Positions 1 to 12,619 of a DNA stretch of 64,000 nucleotides are shown here, one piece after another; positions within the stretch are counted from its first letter, which is position 1; every line of letters starts with the position of its first letter. Source of the stretch: an uncultured Armatimonadia bacterium (GTDB lineage Bacteria; Armatimonadota; Zipacnadia; CAVVLO01); the NCBI GenBank assembly GCA_963749155.1, contig CAVVLO010000001.1:704001-768000 (forward strand). The letters run 5' to 3'. The notes beneath the pieces were generated by a model. The model was given only the letters and a program-made list of their open reading frames with translations. It had not been told where the DNA came from and did no database searches. A program made the position numbers and the translations under genes.

Positions 1-1
1 C

Positions 2-367
2 TATGGGGGAGACCTGCTTTACATTATCTCCCGGAGTGGGCGAGAGCTGTATTCGGAGTCTGACGCCGAGGGCTGGGCGTACTGGAAGACCTGCGAGCAG
101 TATCGCAAGCAGATGCCCCTTTTCGTCTGTTATCACCATCTCCTTGGCTATCGCGTGGGGAGCGAGGAGGCGCTGCAAAAAGCTCTGGCGAAGGAGAAGG
201 TCCATACGGTCTTCCTGAAGGTGAATCAGGACTCTCACGTCTCCCGCGTGAAGGTGCCTGAAGAGTGTCCTTACGCCGATGTCACGACTCCCTGGGGCGC
301 CGCTGGCATCCCCGCCGACCAGTGGAAACAGACCTACCGGAGCTGGCTGGCGCAGGGGAGGGACTAG
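2..367 (+). CDS. 3' part of a pilin-like (DUF1559-type) paralog, truncated by window start
   Basis: Frame open from nt 2: YGGDLLYIISRSG...MPLFVCYHHLLG...LKVNQDSHVSRVKVP. This matches the C-terminal motifs GxGDxLxxLSG / PxLxCxxHLLPG / LxQDGSV of the downstream pilins. Confidence 0.7.
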   Translation, partial: YGGDLLYIISRSGRELYSESDAEGWAYWKTCEQYRKQMPLFVCYHHLLGYRVGSEEALQKALAKEKVHTVFLKVNQDSHVSRVKVPEECPYADVTTPWGAAGIPADQWKQTYRSWLAQGRD

Positions 368-439: not shown

Positions 440-1031
440 ATGACGTCGCAGACCAGGAAGAAGACTTCGGTCCTGTTTTGGGTAGTTATCCTGCTGGGCC
501 TGGTGGCCCTGGGGTTCTTCCTGAGGCCCCCGGCGGGCGGAGACAAACCCCCTGTCGCTTCTCAAACCGAAGCCCAGTCAGGAGCAGGGGGGCCTGGGGC
601 GGTGACCGTTACCCTTATCAAGGACCCCGAGCCGGGTGAGGCCGCGCCCGCGCGCCTGGCAGAAGCCCTTGCCAAGGTGGCGCCCGAGGGCAAACCAGTA
701 GTGCTCGTGATTATCGGAGACTGCACCGATTGCGCCCTCAAGTATCTAAGAGAGTGGAACAAGTTTGCCGCCGAACCCGGCGCGCCTGTCCATACTGGTG
801 CTGACCCCAAGCCTTGAAGAGCAGCTTGCGGCGTTCAGGGCCAAGTATCCAGAGATTAAGTTGCCCTTGCTGAGAGAGCCGTATGACGAGTTGGACCTGG
901 AATTGAATGTCCTCTTCCGACCGCGCGTCTATCTCTACGGGTCGGGGCTGCTCCTCGATTATGTGCAGGCCGATGGGATCGAACCTTTGAAGGCGCTGGA
1001 GCAAGTCCGGGCGCGCCTTACCGGCAGCTAA
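440..1031 (+). CDS. Membrane-anchored thioredoxin-fold (redoxin/TlpA-like) protein, CTDC motif; frameshift near 780
   Basis: ORFs 440..817 and 765..1031 join: N-terminal TM helix, KPVVLVIIGDCTDC, then LNVLFRPRVYLYG. Paralog of 1182..1812. Confidence 0.7.
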
Positions 1032-1181
1032 GGAGCAGGCGGCAGTTGTTTAGCGCGCGGTGGCTTAATATACTGTTGCTCATTATTTATAATATTTAAC
1101 CTTGCAAAGCTAGTGACAAAGCTGGGCGGGGGGATAGACTGTTAAGTGAAGCAAAGTTCTGGCAGTGTTGGAGGTCGCGCG

Positions 1182-1812
1182 ATGACCCAAGCCCAGAGCC
1201 TTTGGAAAGAACGCCTCCCCCTGTGGCGATTCAGCCTGCTGCTCGCTCTGCTTATTGTTTCTCTCATCGTATTCGCGCGCGTCTCCAAGGCCACTCCAAC
1301 GAACCCCCTGTTCAAGCTTAAGCAATTCGTGCTGGAGCAGAAGCAGCAGCACCAGCAGAAGCTGGACCTCGAGCGCGACCCCACTCTCTGGCCAGCCAAG
1401 GCCCGAAGGCCTGACCCAGTGGCTCGCGCAGCAGGGGCTCGCGGGCAAGCCGCTGGCGCTGCTGATGATAGGCTCCTGCAGCGAGTGCGCCACAAGCTAT
1501 CTCAAGGCCTGGAGCGACTTCGCCGCGCTGCCCGGCGCGCCGGCGGTGGTGGTCTTCGCGGCCAGTGAAGAAGCCCAGGTCGAGGTTTTCCTCGCAAAAC
1601 ACCCTGAGCTCAACCTGAAGCTGAAGGTGGCGCCATATCCGGGGCTGGAGAAGGAGCTCAACGCCATCTTCCGGCCCCGCGCCTACTACTACGGGGCGGA
1701 TGGCGCGCTGGGGTGGCTTCAGGGCGACCACACCGACCCCTGGGCGACGCTTGCAGAACTGAAGGAACGGCTCGGACTGGCCGGGGAGGGCAAGGCAGAT
1801 GCGCAAGACTAG
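1182..1812 (+). CDS. Membrane-anchored thioredoxin-fold protein, CSEC motif; frameshift near 1390
   Basis: GGAGG RBS and ATG at 1182. TM helix, then KPLALLMIGSCSEC...LNAIFRPRAYYYG in the second frame. Stop overlaps the pilin start at 1799. Confidence 0.7.
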
Positions 1813-2506
1813 AGGTTTCACCCTTATCGAGTTGCTGATCGTGATGGCTATCCTGACCCTGCTGGCGGGAATCCTCTTCACCGTCTTCGCCGGCGCGAAG
1901 GAGAAAGCCCGCCAGACCCACTGTATGAATAACCTCAAGCAGCTCGGGGCAGCCATCCTGCTGTATAAGCAGGATTATGATGGTGGCTGGCCAGAGTTCG
2001 CGTGGCAGACCTATCCGCAGTATGTTAGCGACAAGGCGCTGTTCGTCTGCCCAGATGACGGCACAGCATCCAGTATCCGTAAGTCCTTCGAGGCCCGACA
2101 CGGCGCCTATGAATCGTATGCGAGAGGCGGGGGAGACCATCTCCCCATATTGTCTGGATTGTTTCTCCGCCAAGCCGCGATCCCGGAGACCGATTGCGGT
2201 TCGCGGGCGATGGCTTTGGCCAGCTGGCACTACCACGATCGATACCCGGTGCTCAGGTGTTTCAATCATCTGTTCCCAGGTAGTGACTGTGACTCCCGCG
2301 CGTTCGACAAGCTGCGAGAGACGCAGGAGGTGCGCGGCGTGATACCTACGCTGAAACAGGATGGCAGTATTGTGATGGAAATCGTGCCTTCTCGTTACGG
2401 ATCGAACCCCTTGGCGGGAAGTGTTGGTGCCCACATAACTGGCAAGGAATGGATGGATGTGCTGAGAAGCTACAAGGAGCAGCTTGGGTGTGAAGAGGAG
2501 GATTGA
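1799..2506 (+). CDS. Prepilin-type N-terminal cleavage/methylation domain protein (DUF1559-like), subtype A
   Basis: MRKTRG|FTLIELLIVMAIL...AKEKARQTHCMNNLKQLG...FVCPDD; class III signal peptide with E5. Confidence 0.9.
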   Translation: MRKTRGFTLIELLIVMAILTLLAGILFTVFAGAKEKARQTHCMNNLKQLGAAILLYKQDYDGGWPEFAWQTYPQYVSDKALFVCPDDGTASSIRKSFEARHGAYESYARGGGDHLPILSGLFLRQAAIPETDCGSRAMALASWHYHDRYPVLRCFNHLFPGSDCDSRAFDKLRETQEVRGVIPTLKQDGSIVMEIVPSRYGSNPLAGSVGAHITGKEWMDVLRSYKEQLGCEEED

Positions 2507-2507
2507 G

Positions 2508-3242
2508 ATGGCAAAGCGAGGTTTCACCCTTATTGAGCTGCTGATTGTGATGGCCATCCTGACCCTGCTGGCGGGAATCCTGTTCACCGTCTTCGCCGGC
2601 GCGAAGGAGAAAGCCCGCCAGACCCACTGTATGAACAACCTCAAGCAGCTCGGGGCAGCGATCCTGCTCTATAAGCAGGACTACGATGGGGGGTGGCCGC
2701 AGTCCAGGCACTGCTCGCTGTTCCCACACTATGTTCAGGACCGAGCAGTGTTCGTCTGCCCAGACGACGCAACCGACTCGAGAACACGCGACGGCGCTAG
2801 AGGCGCGCTGACGGCGCTGTACTGCAGCTATACGCGGGGTAGAGGCGACTACCTTCTGCGGTTGTCTGGATGGGAGTATGAGCGGGTGACAGCCAGTGCG
2901 AACTGTGAGCTCAAGTTCGCCATGCTGTCAACCCAACCCTTCACCTCCCGATTCCCGATGTTGGTTTGTCGCTGGCATCTCCTGCCCGGATCGGATGTGC
3001 TCCGTGCTGAGTTCACGCAGCAGATAGAGACGGCCAGAATTCAAGCACCAATACTGAAGCTGAACCAGGATGGCAGCGTAGTCCGGTGGATGGTACCCAC
3101 ACAAACCGGGGGCTACGAAAACGCTGACACCACTCTGGGCGTCATAGCCTATAGCCGAGAGGAGGCCGCCACTGCTCGCAGGAGGGCAAGAGAGCTCCTG
3201 CGGGCCCAGGGCGGCTGCGACGACTTTCTGAACAGGAGGTGA
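2508..3242 (+). CDS. Prepilin-type protein (DUF1559-like), subtype B
   Basis: GAGGA RBS; MAKRG|FTLIE; same 59-aa constant region. Confidence 0.9.
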   Translation: MAKRGFTLIELLIVMAILTLLAGILFTVFAGAKEKARQTHCMNNLKQLGAAILLYKQDYDGGWPQSRHCSLFPHYVQDRAVFVCPDDATDSRTRDGARGALTALYCSYTRGRGDYLLRLSGWEYERVTASANCELKFAMLSTQPFTSRFPMLVCRWHLLPGSDVLRAEFTQQIETARIQAPILKLNQDGSVVRWMVPTQTGGYENADTTLGVIAYSREEAATARRRARELLRAQGGCDDFLNRR

Positions 3243-3249
3243 GAAGACT

Positions 3250-3590
3250 ATGAGAAGGCTCGATGTCTGCAACCGTCGTGTATGTAGTGCTGGTGGCAGT
3301 GGCGCTCGGCGTATTTGGTCTTGCCATCATTGCGTCGGCCGACGACTGCATACACTACTACATGTGTGGTCCAACGTACAACACATGCTGCGTTAAAGGG
3401 GTGCACCTACACGTCTTTCGGCTCGTATGACGTGGTGAGCTGCTACGAGATGATCGGGATAGGTGGTATAACTATCGCTTGCTACAAGAAAGTGGCGGAT
3501 GCGATCAATCCCTCGTGCCCGACGCCGCCACACCTGTGCACGGACGGGAAGTATGAGCAAGTGACAGGGCATTGCTCGGAGGACTGGTAG
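3250..3590 (+). CDS. Small secreted 10-Cys protein, copy 1 (two 1-nt insertions near 3262 and 3400)
   Basis: AGGAGGT RBS. Reconstructed as MRRLMSATVVYVVLVAVALGVFGLAIIASA|DDCIHYYMCGPTYNTCCVKGCTYT...CPTPPHLC...GHCSEDW. Aligns Cys-for-Cys with the copy at 4412. Confidence 0.75.
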
Positions 3591-3611
3591 CGACACGGAC
3601 CAGAATAACAA

Positions 3612-3677
3612 GAGCAGGGGGACGGTGGGTCCCCTGCTCCACCTCTCTCCGGCCAGGCGCGCTACGAGGAGGCGCAA
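3612..3677. repeat. Hairpin spacer repeat, copy 1 (GAGCAGGGGGAC-loop-GTCCCCTGCTC plus conserved linker to the next pilin RBS)
   Basis: Near-identical at 4761-4829; hairpin part also at 5680-5720. Confidence 0.85.
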
Positions 3678-4387
3678 ATGCGCAAAGACGAGGTTTCACC
3701 CTTATCGAGCTGCTGATCGTGATGGCCATCCTGACCCTGCTGGCGGGCATCCTGTTCACCGTCTTCGCCGGCGCGAAGGAGAAAGCCCGCCAGACCCACT
3801 GTATGAACAACCTCAAGCAGCTTGGGGCAGCGATCCTGCTCTATAAGCAGGACTACGATGGGGGGTGGCCTAAGGATCTGGCCCGGATATACCCGCATTA
3901 TGCGAACAGCTCTGCAGTGTTCGTATGCCCTGACGCGGTTGCGACTGCTGAGGAGCGAGAAGCTGCCCACCGCAGGAAGGGACTCTTCGTGTCGTATGAG
4001 CGCCTTGGGGGCTCCGCCTTGGGTGCGCTGTCCGGCGAGCAACTTGACCGGGTTCTTCGAACTCCTCAGTCGAGCTGTCTGGACAAGGTCGTCGCCTATG
4101 TGACGAACGATGTCGCCAGCAGGCTCCCGGTCCTGTGGTGCGTGGATCACCTGCTCCCTGGCGAGAACTGCATGCGCACAGGCTTCAGGGAGCGCGTGCT
4201 CGAGAACAACGTGCGGGGGGTGATGCCGACACTTGAGCAGGATGGGAGCGTGATAGTAGTGGCAGTGCCGACGCGGTACGATCCCAACCCCTTCGCGTTC
4301 AACGCGATGGCTAGAATGACAGGGCACGAGTGGCAGCGCTTAGTCGACTCGTGGAAAAAGCAGCTTGGTTGTGAGGACGAGCAGTAA
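3678..4387 (+). CDS. Prepilin-type protein, subtype A (1-nt indel in the leader near 3685)
   Basis: GAGGAGG RBS and ATG at 3678 (atgcgcaaagacgaggtttc vs atgcgcaagactagaggtttc at 1799). Constant region identical. Confidence 0.88.
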
Positions 4388-4411
4388 GCTTGCGAATTGG
4401 AGGTGAGACAA

Positions 4412-4843
4412 GTGAGAAGACTGTCTGTTGCAACAATGCTGTGGTTCGTCCTTCTGGCGCTGGTGTTGGGCGTGCTCGCGCAGCTTGTGCTTGCGGACGA
4501 CTGCACAGGTACCCACTGGCTCTGTGGCACCTGGTACGACACCTGTTGCGCGCGTGGGTGCAGCGTCGAGTATTGGGATCCCATCGATTTCCAGATCTCG
4601 TGCCACGAGGTAGATATCAATGTGGGTTACGTCACGTACACGGGCAAGTGCGTCGAGTATCGGGACACAGCAAATCAATACACCTGCCCTACGCAGGAGC
4701 CTCCGTGCAACCGCACACACTGGTGGTTCTGGCCCATGGAATCCTGCCTAGGCAACCTAGGCAGGGGGACGGTAGGTCCCCCTGCTCCACCCCTCTCCCG
4801 GCCAGACCGCGCGCTACGAGGAGGCGCAAATGCGCAAGACTAG
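4412..4843 (+). CDS. Small secreted 10-Cys protein, copy 2 (true stop probably near 4750-4760; ORF reads through the hairpin)
   Basis: GGAGGT RBS, GTG at 4412: MRRLSVATMLWFVLLALVLGVLAQLVLA|DDCTGTHWLCGTWYDTCCARGC...CPTQEPPC...ESC. Confidence 0.8.
   Translation: MRRLSVATMLWFVLLALVLGVLAQLVLADDCTGTHWLCGTWYDTCCARGCSVEYWDPIDFQISCHEVDINVGYVTYTGKCVEYRDTANQYTCPTQEPPCNRTHWWFWPMESCLGNLGRGTVGPPAPPLSRPDRALRGGANAQD
4761..4829. repeat. Hairpin spacer repeat, copy 2
   Basis: GCAGGGGGAC-GGTAG-GTCCCCCTGC, then CCACCCCTCTCCCGGCCAG...GCGCGCTACGAGGAGGCGCAA. Confidence 0.85.
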
Positions 4844-5564
4844 AGCTTTCACCCTTATCGAGCTGCTGATCGTGATGGCCATCCTGACCCTGCTGGCAGG
4901 AATCCTGTTCACCGTCTTCGCCGGCGCGAAGGAGAAAGCCCGCCAGACCCACTGTATGAACAACCTCAAGCAGCTCGGGGCGGCGATACTGCTCTACAAG
5001 CAGGATTATGACGGGGGGTGGCCGCCGGAGGCACGCGCTCTCTTCCCTCATTATGTAGCTGATAAACAGGTCTTCGTGTGTCCAGACGACTGCACCCCCC
5101 AGAGAGAGCGCCGACGGATAGACGAGACATACACGCCCTATTGCAGCTATGACCGGGGTACTGGCGACTACCTGCCGACTTTATCGGGGTGGGCCCTGGA
5201 GCAGGCAATGGCTTCCTTCAACTGCGACCTGAAGGCCAAAGCCCTGGCCGAGCGAGCCTTCCTGGCCCGGCTGCCGGTACTTGTCTGTCTCTGGCACCTG
5301 CTGCCTGGCGCAGATGTGCCTGCTGTGGATTTCAACCGACGCCTGGTTGAGGCGGAGATACAGGCTCCAGCTTTGGTTCTCCGCCAGGATGGGAGTGTGG
5401 ATCGCCTGATGGTTCCATCCGAGACAGGAGGGTACCTCGACGGCATCCGCGGTACCGGTGTGCATGGCTACACGCTGGCAGAATGGATCCCAGCACTTAA
5501 ACGAGCCAGAGAGCAACTGCGCGCGTCGGGTCACTGTACAGATGAAGAAGAAGAGGGGAGGTGA
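4830..5564 (+). CDS. Prepilin-type protein, subtype B (A at position -1)
   Basis: MRKTRA|FTLIE; constant region identical; C-terminus similar to the copy at 2508. Confidence 0.9.
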   Translation: MRKTRAFTLIELLIVMAILTLLAGILFTVFAGAKEKARQTHCMNNLKQLGAAILLYKQDYDGGWPPEARALFPHYVADKQVFVCPDDCTPQRERRRIDETYTPYCSYDRGTGDYLPTLSGWALEQAMASFNCDLKAKALAERAFLARLPVLVCLWHLLPGADVPAVDFNRRLVEAEIQAPALVLRQDGSVDRLMVPSETGGYLDGIRGTGVHGYTLAEWIPALKRAREQLRASGHCTDEEEEGR

Positions 5565-5581
5565 GAAAGAAGGTGAGAGAG

Positions 5582-5665
5582 TTGAAGAAACTCGCTTGCC
5601 CCGACGGCGAGCCGCCCTGCACTCTCACAAAGTGGGAGTTCGAGATCTGGGGAGAGTGCGACTGA
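5582..5665 (+). pseudogene. Internally deleted third copy of the 10-Cys gene
   Basis: TTG-initiated MKKLA-CPDGEPPCTLTKWEFEIWGECD*. The last three Cys have the spacing (x6, x12) of copy 2. It sits in the same position, between a pilin and a hairpin. Confidence 0.7.
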
Positions 5666-5679
5666 GCCTAAAAAAACAA

Positions 5680-5720
5680 GAGCAGGGGGACGGTAGGTCC
5701 CCCCTGCTCCACCCCTCTCC
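5680..5720. repeat. Hairpin spacer repeat, copy 3 (end of array)
   Basis: GAGCAGGGGGAC-GGTAG-GTCCCCCCTGCTC-CACCCCTCTCC. Confidence 0.85.
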
Positions 5721-5831
5721 TGGACGAAGTCCAGAAGAATTCTATTTCTATTTAAATTATACCACCAAGCTGCGTACACGCAAGCCCTCTCTTTTTCCCG
5801 CAAGAAGGCCTCTCCAGTTGGTTTTTGAGGG

Positions 5832-5940
5832 GGGCCGGTGCTGTGTTACACTCTCTTTTATGTACCTGCCCAGTGGCGAGAACCTGAAAAAGTGGAAGCT
5901 GTGCCCAAGCGAGAGGCCTCCTGGTTGCTTTGCTGCTTGT
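5832..5940 (+). repeat. Degenerate direct repeat of 11444-11553 (putative promoter and first codons of the Grx-CcdA gene)
   Basis: 25-nt identical block GGGCCGGTGCTGTGTTACACTCTCT and a 29/30 block GAGAGGCCTCCTGGTYGCTTTGCTGCTTGT, colinear (offsets 79 vs 80 nt). Confidence 0.85.
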
Positions 5941-5987
5941 GCCCGGCCCTTGCAGTCTAGACGCAACAGCAGACGTTTGGAGGAACG

Positions 5988-7762
5988 ATGAGAAGTTTGA
6001 TGCTCATTGAGTTGGCCATACTGGTCGCATATATTCTCGCGTTCACCACCACTCTTGGGCTTGCTGCTTCCGAGGGCAACGAACCCGGCAGACCCTCGGC
6101 GCCCTTGCAGGCTAGTGCAACGGAAAATTCCGCCTCTTTCATCAAGGTCACCCAGGCCGACGGAGTATTCGTCAAGCAGCCGCTGGTTCGATCCAGTCAC
6201 TATGACGAGAAGCTAGCCAGCCAAAATACAGCACGCATCAAGGCCATCATGAGCTCCCCGGCCATCAGCCAATATTGCCGAATCTACTTTCCGGCAGGGG
6301 CCTATTATTTCAACGGCGCCGCAACTGGCTGGAACGCCAGCATCCAGTCTACTGCCAAGTACCAATCTTTCACTGGCGATGGGATCAATGCTACTCGCCT
6401 TATTCAGAAAAGCCTGGATGTCCCAGCCACAATCAAGCTCAGCCATAGTAACTGCACAATCCAGGACTTATCAATTATGTCTTCTGATTACCAGCAGGAT
6501 TTCAATGAGGATTGGGACAAGCACCCGCATCAGACGGCAATCGCACTGGAGTCTTCAGCCTTTACGCATACCGATCCGCAGATATTGAATGTCAACATCA
6601 ATACCAGCGGAAACAACATTATCATCGATGGATTCTTCCGTCCCTTCAAGACAGGCATAAGGATCACCGGCCCGTGGTTCAATGTCTATGCGCACACAAT
6701 GTTTATGTTGTATGTCCACAATGCTATCTATGTAAACCAGGGCAATATGTGCGGGGGCCGGCAAAGTTCCTGGATATCAACGCGTACGCCACCTCTCCTC
6801 ATACGGAGAAGCCAGTTACCCAGACCTGGAACACGTTCTTCAAGAGTGAAGGGCATTTCATGGAGCAGGTCGAGCTTATCCACTGCACTTATATAGGCTC
6901 TCAGTTCATCTGCATGGATGGCGCCAAGCTCTCCCCGGGTGACGATAACTCTACCAAGACGGCGACTACCCCGGTTTACAACATGATCGTGGATCATTGC
7001 TACATAAACTCACTCTGGCTACCGTCACCCTCGGAGGAGGCGAAGTGGTCAGGTATTTACTTGAATCTGCCGCCAAGGCCAGGAGGTATTGAGCCGGGAT
7101 TTGGCACGGAGCTTTACAGCAGGCAGGTAGTCTTCACCAACAATACCTGTATGGGCAAGACCCCGCGCAACGGAGCGTTTTTCTACATCGAGGGCAACGT
7201 TAGAGATGTAACACTTCAAGGTAATCATATTGCCTCGGGAGGAGGAGATCGCTGCATCTATATTCGGGCCACCCGCCCGTTCCTGGATACAGATGTAGCG
7301 GTGCGTGATATCAAGATCTCCGATAACTACTTCGAGGATTTCCAGGCGCCGATTACGATCGGAGGAAACAAGCAAGATCTATCACGAACCAGTAACAACG
7401 CAGGCCAGGATGATGATCCTTACTGGGTCGAAGGCGTGACGATTACCGGTAACAGGTCTTACTATTTGCCGGTCACAGAGAAGTATCAACTTACGGGTAT
7501 TCTCTTGAACCGCGCGCGGCGTGTCCTTGTGCAGGCCAACACACTCGCCAGGACCAGTGGATCGTCGGTCATCCTGAACGAGTGCGAAGACATCATAATG
7601 CAGGACAATATGTTCGCTGGTCTTGCTGATATGGGCGAGAACGGGATAGTACTGCAGAAATGCAAGACGGCTATTTTGATCGGAAACATAACGCGCGGTT
7701 TTCGGCATGGGATTTTACAGCAGGGCTCCGAGAACGTGACGCTCGCAAACAATTTGGAGTAG
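5988..7762 (+). CDS. Secreted right-handed parallel beta-helix (pectate lyase-like) protein; frameshift near 6755
   Basis: Signal peptide, IYFPAGAYYF and FTGDG motifs, repeated (V/I)xxxxN strands. ORFs 5988..6896 and 6512..7762 join. Confidence 0.75.
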
Positions 7763-8151: not shown

Positions 8152-11100
8152 ATGGACGAAAAACAAGCACAAGGTAAGGTTACAGGGCCTAGTCTGTGGG
8201 TGGCCGGCTCGATCGCCCTCCTGCTGGTCGTCGGGATTCTCTTCACCTGGTGGACGGCAATGCGGGCTGACCGAGAGATGCGCGCCGACCTGATGCAACA
8301 GGCGCGGTTGGCGGCTCAAGCGGTGAGCCTTGAGCGAGTCCAGGCGCTTGCCGGCTCAGAGGCGGAGCTGACCAGCCCTGACTATCTCCGACTCAAGAAG
8401 CAGTTGGATGGTATCCGCACGACCAACCCCCAGTGCCGGGGCCTCTACCTCATGGGGCGCCATCCCGACGGGACGGTGTTCTTCCTCGTAGACACCCAAA
8501 ACGACGCGACGGAGAACTCTCCGTCCGCCTTGCCTGGGGAGCTCTACCCCGATGCATCCGATGAACTCAAAGCCCTCTTTGCCACCGGAGTGCCTTTCGT
8601 GGAGGGCCCGCTGCCCGATGAGTGGGGCGTTTGGGTCTCGGCCCTGGTCCCGCTGACCGACCCCGACACCGATGCCGTGATCGCGGTCGTGGGGATGGAT
8701 ATCGATGCTGGTGACTGGAACCTGAAGGTGGCAGAAAGGGCAGCCCTGCCCGTGGGGCTGATGCTGCTATTGCTTATAGGCGGGGTTACCGCTCTGGCCA
8801 TCACCCGCCGCGTGAGTGCTTCGCCCAAGCCGGTGCTGCGTCGCCTCTTGCTCCCACATGCAGTCCTGGTGGTGCTCTTTCGACGGTCGGCGCGGGGGCG
8901 CTTCTCTGGCAGCAGCATCAGCAGCAAGTTACCCAGACCATCGCGAGCCATGATGCCGAAGTCGCGAGGGACCTGCGCACAATCCTGGAGCAGCAGGCCT
9001 CTGGCCTGGCCACCGCCCTTCAGCCCATCACCGCAGATGTCAGAGTGCAGCAAGCCCTGCGCAAGGGCGACGCCGCTAGTCTGCTGACCGTCTGGCGCCC
9101 TGTCTTCGAGAGCATGCACAGCGAGAACAAGGTGACCCACTTCGTCTTCCTGGATGCGAAACGCGTCTGCCTGCTGCGGGTTAATAAACCAGACAAGCAT
9201 GGCGATCGGATTGATCGATTCACGGCGCTCGAGGCGGAGCGGACTGGCAAGACCGCTTCGGGAATTGAACTCGGACTACTAGGCACCTTTACTCTGCGAG
9301 TAGTGCGACCGGTCTTCGAGGCTGGCACTCTTGTCGGTTATGTGGAACTCGGCAAGGAGATCGAAGATGCCATGCAGGTGCTGCATACCCGGTATAACAG
9401 CCAGTTAGTCATCTGCATCAGAAAGGAATACCTGGACCGGGAGGAGTGGGAGAGCGGTATGCGCCTGCTCCAGCGGCAGCCTGACTGGGATCGCCTTGCC
9501 CACTACGTCGTCAGCTATTACTCGCAGGGCCGCCTGCCCAACGCCTTCGCAACTTGGGCCGATAAGGTATTGGGTACCGAACAGAGCGACAAGAAGGACC
9601 ACGAATTTGACCTGGGCGGAGAAGTCTGGCGCGTGGCCAAAACGCCCTTGCAGGAGGCCTCGGGCAGGGAGGTCGGTGACCTGCTGTTCCTGGATAACAT
9701 CACTGCCGACAAAGTGGCTTTTACGCGGCTGCTTGTCCTGGCCAGTATCATTGCCGGAGTCGTGTTGGCTCTGCTTCTAGGTTACATCCTTGTCCTGCTT
9801 GCACGCACCGATGCGGCTATCCGCGCCCAGCAGCGAGAACTGCGCGAGAGTGAGGAACGGCATCGGTTGCTCTTCGACCAGTCCTGGGACGCCCTTATGA
9901 CCCTGGCCCCCCCGTCGTGGAAGTTCACTTCGGGCAATCCGGCGGCCTACAAGCTCTTCGGCATCCAGGATGAGGCGGAATTTACCAGCCTGGGACCATG
10001 GGACCTGGCCCCTGGACTGCAGCTAGACGGCCTTCCCTCAGCTGAGAAGGCCAAGAATCATATTGAGACGGCCATGCGCGAGGGTTCCCACTACTTCGAG
10101 TGGACTCACCGGCACCTCAGTGATGGCACGGATTTCCCTGCCACGGTGCTGCTGACCAGGATGGAGCAAGAGGGACAAGTTTTTCTTCAGGCTACAGTAC
10201 GCGACAACACGGCCCAGAAGCGGGCGGAGGAGGCCCTAAGGGAGAGGGACATCTTCCTGACCAACCTCTTGGACACACTCCCCATCCCCGTTTTTTACAA
10301 GGACCAGGAGGGACGGTACCTGGGGCTGAACAAGGCCTTCATGACTTTCCTCGGGAAGTCGCGAGAGCAACTGCTGGGGAAGACCGTCTTCGAAGTCAAC
10401 CCGACGGAACTTGCGGCCGTCTTCCACGCCAAAGATCTGGAGCTGATGGAGAGAAGGGGCCTGCAGCAATACGAGGCTCAAGTAATGGACGCCAGTGGAG
10501 TAATGCGCGACGTCATCTTCTACAAGGCGACCCTGACAACTAGCCAGGGCGACCTGAACGGTCTTGTCGGGGCCATACTGGACATCACCGAGCGCAAGCA
10601 AGCGCAGGAAGTGCTAAGTCGCTCCCACGAGGAGCTTGAGCGCCGGGTGACCGAGCGCACCGCCCAGCTGCTGGAGGCCAACAAGGAGCTTGAGGCTTTT
10701 GCCTACTCGGTCTCGCATGATCTGAGGGCGCCCCTTCGCACTCTCAACGGCTTCTCGAATATCCTCTTGAAGAGCAATGACGAGGCGCTGGACGAGCAGT
10801 CCAGGCACTATCTTGACCTTATCGGCAAAGGCGCCCTGCGTATGGACCGGCTGGTATCAGGCCTGCTGGAATACGCTCGCACCAGCCAGGCAGCGATGGA
10901 GCCTGACTGGTGTTATCCCGAGGCTCTGGTGCGGGAGCTGCTGGAGGGGCTGGGTACCCGCTATCCTACCGCTACCTTAAAGATAGAGCCTCTACCTAAG
11001 TGCTGGGCTGATCCCCAACTCCTGCACCAGGTGTGGCAGAACTTGCTTGATAACGCATTGAAGTTCTCCTCAACCCGGGAGGACGCTGTGGTCCAGGTAG

Positions 11101-11525
11101 GTGGCCGGCGCGAGGGCGAGGAGATCGTCTATTTCGTGAAAGACAATGGCGAGGGCTTTGACCCCACTTACTCTGAGAAGCTTTTCAAGGTGTTCCAGCG
11201 CTTGCATACCGATGAGCAATTCGAGGGCATCGGGATCGGGCTTGCGATAGTGGGCAGCCTCATTGGAAGGCACGGAGGGCGTGTCTGGGCGGAGTCCATC
11301 CCCGGAGAGGGAGCGACTTTCTTCTTCAGTCTCCCGGCCGTCAGAGAAAGGCAGAGACTGACCGGGCAACAGACCAGTAGGCAGAGGGGGACGGGCCAGG
11401 TTTACGGGTGCCACAAGCCAGCCGAAGGGTTGCTCCACCCTTTGGGCCGGTGCTGTGTTACACTCTCTCTTATGAACCAGTCCAGTTGCTGGAGTGTGCA
11501 ATTCGTGGGAGTCAGGCGCAGGTGA
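8152..11525 (+). CDS. Multi-sensor membrane histidine kinase (two extracytoplasmic Cache-like domains, 2 PAS, HisKA, HATPase); frameshift near 8880; true stop probably near 11360
   Basis: H-box FAYSVSHDLRAPLR, N-box NLLDNALKF, DNGEGF, GIGIGL. Confidence 0.88.
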
Positions 11526-12619
11526 GAGGCCTCCTGGTCGCTTTGCTGCTTGTCCTGTCGGCTGGCCTTGCCGTCGCCGCGGAGCTTGTTTATTTTACCG
11601 ATCCGTTTTGCCCCGAGTGTGGTCAGTCTCGCCCCCTGCTTGAAAAGGCTCTGGCAGTGCATCCTGAATTCACACTGCGCGAGATCGATGTCTCGAGGAG
11701 AGAGGGGCTGGCGGAGCGCCGCAAGCTGGAAGAAGCCGCTGGCATCTCCGTCCTCGACCGCGGTCACACACCCGCCGTGCTGGTCGGCAATCGGGTGATA
11801 TACGGGCTGGACCAGTTCGCGCGGCTGTCCGAGATATTGACCGAGTCTGTCTCTGAATCCGTTACCCCCCCTACTGTGACAGGGAAGGCCTCGCTTTGGC
11901 TGGTGCTGCTCGCCGGGCTGGCCGATGGAGTGAATCCCTGCGCGGCTGCGGCGGTGCTCTTCTTCGCCGCGATGATGACCCGGATGGGGAAAGGTCGCAA
12001 GGGCATCTTGCTGCTTGGGGGAGGCTTCCTGGTCGGGTTCGTCCTGGGCTACCTGCTGCTGGGAGTCGGTCTGCTGGCGGGATTGAAGAGTATCCTGGTT
12101 GGGCAGGGGGTAGCGTCGGCGCTATATGGCCTGTTCGGCCTGGCCTGTCTTGGGCTGGCAATACTGGCTTTCAGAGACGCCGCGCGCTCCTGGCGCAGTG
12201 GTAAAGCCGAGGTAAGCCTCGGGCTGCCGCCCTTCCTCAAGCGGGTGGAGCACCGGCTGACCCGCTGGGCGACCAACTCGCGCTGGCTACTGCCGGCAGG
12301 CTTCTCGCTTGGCTTTGCGCTGACGCTGGTCTCTTTCGTCTGCACGGGGCAGCTCTATATCCCAGTACTGACGGGCATCGCCTCAGCAAAAACGAGTATC
12401 GCGAGCAGCTTCCCGCTGCTGCTGCTCTACAATCTGGCTTTTGCCATCCCGACTGCGCTGGTGCTGGGCGCCTGCGCGGCTGGAGTGGGTAGTGAGCGTC
12501 TGGGCGCTTTTTTCAGCCGGAAGGTGGCCGCTTCGCGCCTGGCGATGGGGATTGCGTTTATGCTGCTGGGAGTGTGGCTGCTGGAACTCGCCTGGAAGAG
12601 TCGCTTGCTGGTAGGCTAG
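11522..12619 (+). CDS. Glutaredoxin-like CxxC domain fused to a CcdA/DsbD-beta (cytochrome c biogenesis) transmembrane domain
   Basis: Signal peptide, FTDPFCPEC, then multi-TM region with LADGVNPCA and SFVCTGQLY. Confidence 0.8.
   Translation: MRGLLVALLLVLSAGLAVAAELVYFTDPFCPECGQSRPLLEKALAVHPEFTLREIDVSRREGLAERRKLEEAAGISVLDRGHTPAVLVGNRVIYGLDQFARLSEILTESVSESVTPPTVTGKASLWLVLLAGLADGVNPCAAAAVLFFAAMMTRMGKGRKGILLLGGGFLVGFVLGYLLLGVGLLAGLKSILVGQGVASALYGLFGLACLGLAILAFRDAARSWRSGKAEVSLGLPPFLKRVEHRLTRWATNSRWLLPAGFSLGFALTLVSFVCTGQLYIPVLTGIASAKTSIASSFPLLLLYNLAFAIPTALVLGACAAGVGSERLGAFFSRKVAASRLAMGIAFMLLGVWLLELAWKSRLLVG

Follow-up and report, generated by a model that had tools for sequence, protein, structure and literature searches.

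The question raised by this locus is why two small, cysteine-rich genes lie between prepilin genes and what their products might do. The window, meaning here the whole stretch of 64,000 nucleotides of an uncultured Armatimonadia bacterium that was analysed, carries both genes near its start, and an earlier note had described them as members of an unannotated family of small secreted proteins with ten conserved cysteines. They are called copy 1 and copy 2 below, and their products the cargo, for reasons that are explained in a subsequent section.

Organisation of the array

The array is preceded by a sigma-70-like promoter match at 1065–1093 (+ strand, 10/12), which is a match to the consensus only, as four were found where 1.2 were expected. 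The leading gene (1182–1812, +) encodes an N-terminally membrane-anchored, thioredoxin-like protein with a CSEC motif and is split by an indel near position 1384. This is followed by four prepilin-type DUF1559 genes, all on the + strand: gene 1 (1799–2506), gene 2 (2508–3242; directly upstream of copy 1), gene 3 (3678–4387; directly upstream of copy 2) and gene 4 (4830–5564). All four products score above the cut-offs for both N_methyl and SBP_bac_10, with about 30 of the 268 SBP_bac_10 positions matched. The ATG of gene 3 (position 3678) and its pilin motif (position 3692) lie in different frames, and a nearly identical copy of this gene is present on contig C2. The AF2 model of the pilin is unusable (pLDDT 47).

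Each cargo copy has a prepilin-type DUF1559 gene before it and a GC-rich palindrome after it. The palindrome at 3612–3641 is a variant of a REP-like repeat, and further REP-like palindromes are found at 4760–4787 and at 5679–5710, the last being terminator-like on the minus strand (z -5.0). The repeat, which consists of GCAGGGG, 3–14 nt and CCCCTGC, is present in 59 copies genome-wide versus 0–3 for control arm pairs (examples are C1:417852–434499, C1:88934 and C6:30663–58939), and the hairpins are not specific to the cassette. Two weak matches to Y1_Tnp, a transposase type that often accompanies REP elements, are near REP-like copies at C1:88608 and C1:421369. REP elements have been proposed as mRNA stabilisers (in a passage of PMC3733652). 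A search of positions 900–6100 against Rfam gave nothing, and RNA run X23 yielded only short pieces of less than 90% identity at the pilin starts, which are no evidence on expression.

Upstream, a second CxxC paralogue with the motif CTDC (440–1031, +), also split, closes a three-pilin cluster that starts before the window. This cluster (L002:12161–14368 plus window 1–367) consists of three pilin-like genes, the third without a GFxxxE motif, and has no cargo. Downstream of the array are a secreted beta-helix (pectate-lyase-like) gene at 5988–7762 and a PAS histidine kinase gene at 8152–11525, each split by a frameshift, as are many genes in this assembly. The gene at 11408–12619, 5.7 kb beyond the array, encodes a CPEC domain of thioredoxin/glutaredoxin type (weak Pfam match) fused to a membrane domain that resembles CcdA, and its product is a possible redox partner. 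Much further along, sequence from about 48480 onward resembles the start of a 23S rRNA gene; it has promoter-like DNA before it and no 16S gene directly upstream, and it may explain the strand skew there.

The cargo genes and their breaks

Copy 1 (3250–3590, +) has its reading spread across three frames from the ATG at 3250, with breaks near 3262 and 3395, and encodes ten cysteines behind a predicted signal peptide. Copy 2 (4412–4751, +) has an open frame from the GTG at 4412, a hydrophobic leader and ten cysteines. It is also broken, which the earlier note had missed: a break near 4747 hides its stop, and the frame stays open as far as 4843, giving an ORF of 143 aa. A third cargo gene remains as a remnant at 5582–5665 (+), in which an in-frame internal deletion has joined five start codons to the last 22 codons. 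Over 92 nt, the DNA of the remnant's tail is 94.6% identical to that of P0005, a paralogue that is intact and located at C2:1519656–1519994 of the same genome.

When X is placed at the two breaks of copy 1, its cysteine spacing is 5,6,0,3,12,12,11,6,11, and that of copy 2 is 6,6,0,3,13,15,11,6,12, both of which fit the pattern given in the earlier note. Read in the same way, both proteins have MRRL, a hydrophobic stretch and A|DDC, as had been claimed. The mature parts have 23 of 79 positions in common. The statement that few other residues are conserved was too strong, however, as more are kept: T44, G49, A86 and P92 are invariant in all 16 rows of the family alignment. The whole cysteine pattern occurs twice in the six frames of the 4.17-Mb genome, once in copy 2 and once in the intact C2 paralogue.

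The earlier note had repaired copy 1 by removing two single-nucleotide insertions, and both are absent from a 351-nt public contig of run X1, which has one base fewer at 3262 and at 3395 (depth 3.4, three other differing letters, and an 11-nt insertion ahead of the start; the run may be close to the source sample). Similarly, a 240-nt public contig of run X3 (depth 2.6, no other differing letters) has one base fewer at 4747. These are one low-depth contig each, with both depths below the tool's caution level of 5. Intact relatives are also available: P0013 is identical to copy 1 at 63 of 82 mature positions, and P0015, which stops at the last cysteine, is identical to copy 2 at 54 of 84. Because frameshifts affect 6 of the 13 pilin genes of the window pilin subfamily in this indel-rich assembly, the three breaks in copies 1 and 2 are most likely assembly errors. 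The possibility that the frameshifts are real and that no intact homologue exists, which the note had itself raised, is contradicted by the unbroken contigs and by P0013 and P0015. An assembly artefact or a chance pattern is ruled out by these contigs, the intact orthologues and the genome-wide pattern count.

A family of ten-cysteine proteins

Besides the two copies, 14 full-length relatives and some fragments were found, nearly all from short metagenome contigs; the exhaustive HMMER scan gave five representatives and the second round, 12 proteins. No true match was present among 60 same-class genomes, and the two weak matches among 400 phylum genomes are both antisense or off-frame within other genes. 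The GTDB scan and Atlas returned no match, and the single metagenome locus that was matched is antisense to a P-type ATPase. The window cargo has nothing over a curated cut-off in Pfam, NCBIfam, PHROG or PADLOC and no match among PDB sequences. In addition, a phage, plasmid or defence origin found no match in PHROGs, PADLOC, viral contigs, or phage or plasmid records.

There are ten cysteines in 14 of the 16 rows, nine in one (P0006, whose middle looks frameshifted) and eleven in another. In five rows Cys6 is gone and a new cysteine lies beside Cys7; four of these have ten cysteines and one has eleven. A single clade is rejected for the shifted rows (AU p=0.00016, in a tree of 14 rows that left out P0006 and P0004, with recombination weakening any tree), and therefore the relocation arose at least twice. 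The leader is 28–31 aa long with a mean hydropathy of 2.3–3.0 over 19 residues; in 16 of 16 proteins its last residue (-1) is Ala, and position -3 is occupied by a small or aliphatic residue. The mature part, which contains 10–17 aromatic residues, has a pI below 5 in 15 of the 16.

The structure prediction and fold search that the earlier note had suggested gave a confident, beta-rich model of P0005 (AF2; pLDDT 87.2, pTM 0.64), for which Foldseek found nothing at E<=0.001 and VIA a best Z of 3.6 over 48,161 chains. With neither a sequence nor a fold match in these searches, the family is unannotated, as had been proposed. The predicted mature part comprises six strands (32–35, 39–43, 51–55, 59–70, 73–90 and 99–107) and one 4-residue helix, and is preceded by a single helix across residues 2–29. 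The C5–C6 segment, which is the predicted tip of a hairpin, is the most variable: copy 1 and P0013 agree at 5 of 13 positions there and at 18/20, 18/24 and 22/24 elsewhere. Together, the ten cysteines in 14 of 16 rows, their relocation, the quality of the model and the variable C5–C6 segment indirectly support the earlier proposal of a five-disulfide mini-protein with variable loops. A binder-like scaffold is plausible. A defensin- or toxin-like protein is not supported, as the proteins are acidic, the model departs from the layout of one helix with two strands, and the searches gave no match to a family of that sort. The cysteine count, the beta model and the low pI also speak against an actifensin-type defensin.

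The CxxC gene and the pilin clusters of the genome

All four CxxC paralogues of the genome sit in four pilin clusters on contigs C1 and C2. Cysteine-rich genes are present in three of these clusters and absent from the one upstream of the window, and all five small cysteine-rich genes found in the clusters come after a pilin. One of them, in the third array, encodes a 7-Cys protein (C2:1523545–1523847, or L001:15546–15848) between two degenerate prepilins; it is possibly frameshifted, and its N-terminus weakly resembles that of the ten-cysteine family (hhalign 79%, 37 columns). A narrower screen of 14 other prepilin regions found no cysteine-rich ORF with a signal peptide. Tandem arrays of four to five DUF1559 prepilins with near-identical N-termini and no cargo are located at C2:313867–317855 and C3:399357–403323. 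The genome has pilus ATPases, six secretins and one A24 prepilin peptidase.

The CxxC proteins of this genome have no Pfam match. Four of four homologues match AhpC-TSA/Redoxin weakly, one of them at the cut-off, and Atlas (0.92, with 105–112 shared features) points likewise towards AhpC/TSA-Redoxin. Both cysteines of the motif, which in this fold family opens the helix that follows strand 1, are invariant in six of six aligned proteins, and CxxC is kept in 57 of 69 aligned profile matches. These resemblances suggest that the leading gene encodes a thioredoxin-fold, AhpC/TSA-Redoxin-like protein, a putative oxidoreductase.

Recurrence of the cassette across the phylum

A search with a single CxxC protein gave weak matches in 6 of 400 other genomes, of which one (L043) is false and one (L041) doubtful; at four of the six loci the order is CxxC gene, prepilin, cysteine-rich gene. 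A profile, A6, was then built from six CxxC proteins and matches 65 of 401 phylum genomes, own genome included, in 40 of 208 genera. Among same-class genomes the profile matched none besides G000, the genome of the window. Seventy of 99 foreign places were read, giving 69 loci, of which 29 were the best by genome and 40 were picked for contig room. A same-strand prepilin is present in 50 of these loci, a small cysteine-rich ORF with a hydrophobic N-terminus in 46, and both together in 41, which by hand count represent 37 genomes and 12 families. The order in the 41 is CxxC–pilin–cargo in 39 and cargo–pilin–CxxC in two. L081 and L111 resemble the window array in having two pilin–cargo pairs grouped around one or two CxxC genes. 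The remaining 23 of the 69 have no cargo, some being short contigs or weak matches.

After removal of the four seed loci, cargo is present in 42 of 65 and both partners in 37 of 65. On the opposite strand, which served as a control, a cysteine-rich ORF with a signal peptide was found in 0 of 69 loci, and at other prepilin loci in 2 of 19 (Fisher p=4e-5, with kin not independent). Both of these two loci look like cassettes themselves. One, L029 (G028:C105:6738–9707), encodes in order a pilin-like protein, a cargo with ten cysteines and a CxxC protein that belongs to a different thioredoxin type; it comes from the class of the window genome and looks like a cassette whose oxidoreductase has been replaced. 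The other, L033, adjoins a CxxC profile match.

The 48 cargo proteins from these loci fall into 33 BLAST clusters. They have 8–18 cysteines, with a CC pair in 39, and the cysteine count is even in 44 of the 48 and in 30 of the 33 cluster representatives. Their median pI is 4.9, and two of 48 exceed 8. None matches Pfam or NCBIfam at E<=0.001 (0/48), and none matches the profile of the window family (best E 0.26). Among the cassette pilins outside this genome, Gly at -1 is present in 28 of 46 and several are without it.

Recombination in the arrays

The four window pilins are identical at 57–58 of their first 58 residues and at 52–90 of the 169–178 residues of the C-domain, and pilin 2 is identical to pilin 3 at all but 2 of 31 fourfold sites. 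When the arrays on C1 and C2 are compared, 58–60 of every 60 positions are identical from 3860 to 4459, that is, over pilin 3 and the leader; past the leader, in the cargo, this falls to 51, 39 and then 28–32 of 60. In related contigs, whose joints between repeats can be assembly chimeras, a pilin 1-type end is joined to a copy 2-type gene, a 1031-nt cargo-plus-pilin unit is skipped so that the 7-Cys cargo is missing, or another allele end occupies the P0005 slot. Because of the constant pilin and leader segments, the drop in the cargo and the rejoined contigs, taken together, we infer homologous recombination through the constant segments, which fits all three. A mosaic test on the proteins (687 triplets) gave one clear-cut case, P0004, with 5 sites followed by 36 sites; its permutation p (0.0005) is as low as 2000 shuffles allow, and P0004 may be a short-read chimera. 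A diversity-generating retroelement is rejected, as RVT_1 has no match in this genome, rated 100% complete.

Proposed function and alternatives

The two window genes occupy the cargo slot of a conserved CxxC–prepilin–cargo cassette, which the earlier note had not recognised. We propose, at somewhat less than an even chance, that the cargo would be a swappable, disulfide-locked surface binder displayed with the pilin. Gene order, recurrence, cargo diversity, even cysteine counts and recombination in this genome's arrays are observed. The functional steps would be as follows. The cargo would be exported by Sec and cleaved after the conserved Ala, and the CxxC protein would form or reshuffle its four to nine disulfides and those of the pilin. 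The prepilin would be processed by the single A24 peptidase and enter a type IV filament, where the acidic, aromatic-rich cargo may join it and set the target, be it a glycan, a surface or another cell; here, the C5–C6 hairpin could be the specificity loop. Finally, homologous recombination via the near-identical pilin 5' ends and leaders would swap, add and drop cargo genes.

Display with the pilin is favoured because the CxxC paralogues lie in pilin clusters, cargo follows pilin, the arrangement recurs across the phylum and the controls are low. It is favoured also by the even cysteine counts, the cysteine relocation, the Ala at -1, the pilus machinery and the recombination. Several observations stand against it. 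No DsbB or VKOR was found in the genome as an oxidant partner, and AhpC/TSA-Redoxin-like CxxC proteins are often reductases. Pilin and cargo are not strictly cognate, as near-identical pilin 3 precedes two different cargos; several cassette pilins lack Gly at -1 and a third of the CxxC loci (23/69) have no cargo. In addition, the cargo has no pilin leader, and the sequence therefore gives no hint of how it would join a filament.

The strongest alternative, which is nevertheless unlikely, is that the cargo is released freely and acts as a bacteriocin-like antagonist or as an inhibitor of enzymes, folded by the CxxC protein, with the pilin-like protein as an export adaptor or immunity partner. 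The same cassette evidence applies to it, as do the secretins of the genome. In combining a conserved leader with hypervariable sequence after it, the cargo resembles actifensin arrays (as described in part of PMC12766674), and oxidoreductases are required for sublancin production according to a study cited in PMC2765640. The cargos are acidic, however, both across the phylum and in the window family, they match no AMP or defence family, and the window array has no ABC exporter, modification enzyme or small immunity gene.

Quite improbable is a cargo that keeps its N-terminal helix as a membrane anchor. Together with the pilin-like protein it would then make up a variable receptor complex in the periplasm, serving uptake or sensing and not part of a filament. 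The hydrophobic stretch is indeed long and is modelled as one helix, and DUF1559 proteins have been called solute-binding proteins (in a passage of PMC4807772). Yet the residues at -1 and -3 of all 16 proteins fit cleavage by signal peptidase I (judged by residues), and the window array has no transporter gene.

Most improbable is that the cysteines bind metal or carry electrons while the CxxC protein, as a ResA/TlpA-like reductase fed by CcdA/DsbD, keeps a surface cargo reduced: the absence of DsbB and VKOR beside one DsbD_TM gene, the thioredoxin-plus-membrane gene at 11408–12619 and the AhpC-TSA/Redoxin matches would suit it, but the even cysteine bias and count-preserving relocation fit pairing, the ten-cysteine family has no CxxC ligand motifs, and the free spacing of 8–18 cysteines is at odds with a fixed metal site.

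Returning to display with the pilin, its widest form is more tentative than the claim for the two window genes: a phylum-wide, undescribed mini-protein platform might exist in which each cassette combines one folding enzyme with one pilin carrier, so that dozens of unrelated 8–18-Cys scaffolds would be presented on type IV filaments and swapped by recombination.

Significance

Most known disulfide-rich mini-proteins with four to nine bridges come from animals, plants and fungi. Here, one gene-neighbourhood rule leads to 48 unannotated bacterial mini-proteins in 33 clusters, plus the ten-cysteine family. Each part is of a known kind, and the unit and its cargo repertoire are undescribed; the literature search, in which subscription journals are thinly covered, found no description of the cassette in print. 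For the DUF1559 prepilins, which are very numerous, the rule also offers a first way of testing one subset, namely the prepilins that occur together with a CxxC enzyme and a variable cargo. Acting on scaffolds of so many kinds, the CxxC protein would be a candidate folding catalyst of broad specificity, and the cargos are candidates for stable binder scaffolds. If true, the platform would give bacteria a counterpart to the mini-protein repertoires (venom- and defensin-type) of eukaryotes, and it would be a natural library from which new disulfide folds could be drawn.

Comparison with known systems

In Vibrio, TcpG acts on TcpA. Extracytoplasmic CxxC proteins serve disulfide-containing exported or pilin substrates, as in the case of the Bacillus Bdb proteins for sublancin and the Com pseudopilus (from part of PMC2765640). 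The cassette is like these systems in pairing an extracytoplasmic CxxC protein with such a substrate. It differs in that oxidoreductase, pilin and cargo form one transferable unit with cargo in 33 clusters, and in that searches of this genome turned up neither a DsbB/BdbC nor a VKOR partner.

Like the DUF1559 (SBP_bac_10) prepilins of PVC bacteria and Armatimonadota, the window pilins have an N_methyl plus SBP_bac_10 N-terminus over the cut-offs. Unlike those prepilins at large, the subset here is tied to a CxxC gene and cargo, and 17 of 19 other loci are without cargo. The Verru_Chthon cassette (TIGR02596–TIGR02599) is likewise a lineage-restricted, repeated cassette of prepilin-type genes. 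To our knowledge it has no CxxC gene or cysteine-rich cargo, and it was rejected as an identity for the present one at 14–17 bits versus cut-offs of 70 and 256. For the phylum, large expansions of pseudopilins have been reported, amounting to 79 genes (in part of PMC4072686).

Actifensins have a signal peptide that is cut shortly before the first cysteine, a conserved leader, a variable mature part and adjacent isoforms, and the cargo shares this layout. They have six cysteines, three disulfides, one helix plus two strands and a mostly positive surface (both descriptions from passages of PMC12766674). The window family, in contrast, has ten cysteines in about 84 residues, six predicted strands, an acidic character, and pilin and CxxC partners.

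A last comparison concerns recombination and is made with the pilin genes of the window. These resemble Neisseria pilE/pilS, where constant 5' and variable 3' pilin parts are reshuffled by homologous recombination, in having constant 5' and variable 3' parts. All four window pilins keep the full N-terminus with its motif, so none is an evident silent cassette, and pilS-type silent copies are rejected. Unlike pilE/pilS, the unit that is moved here includes a separate cargo gene.
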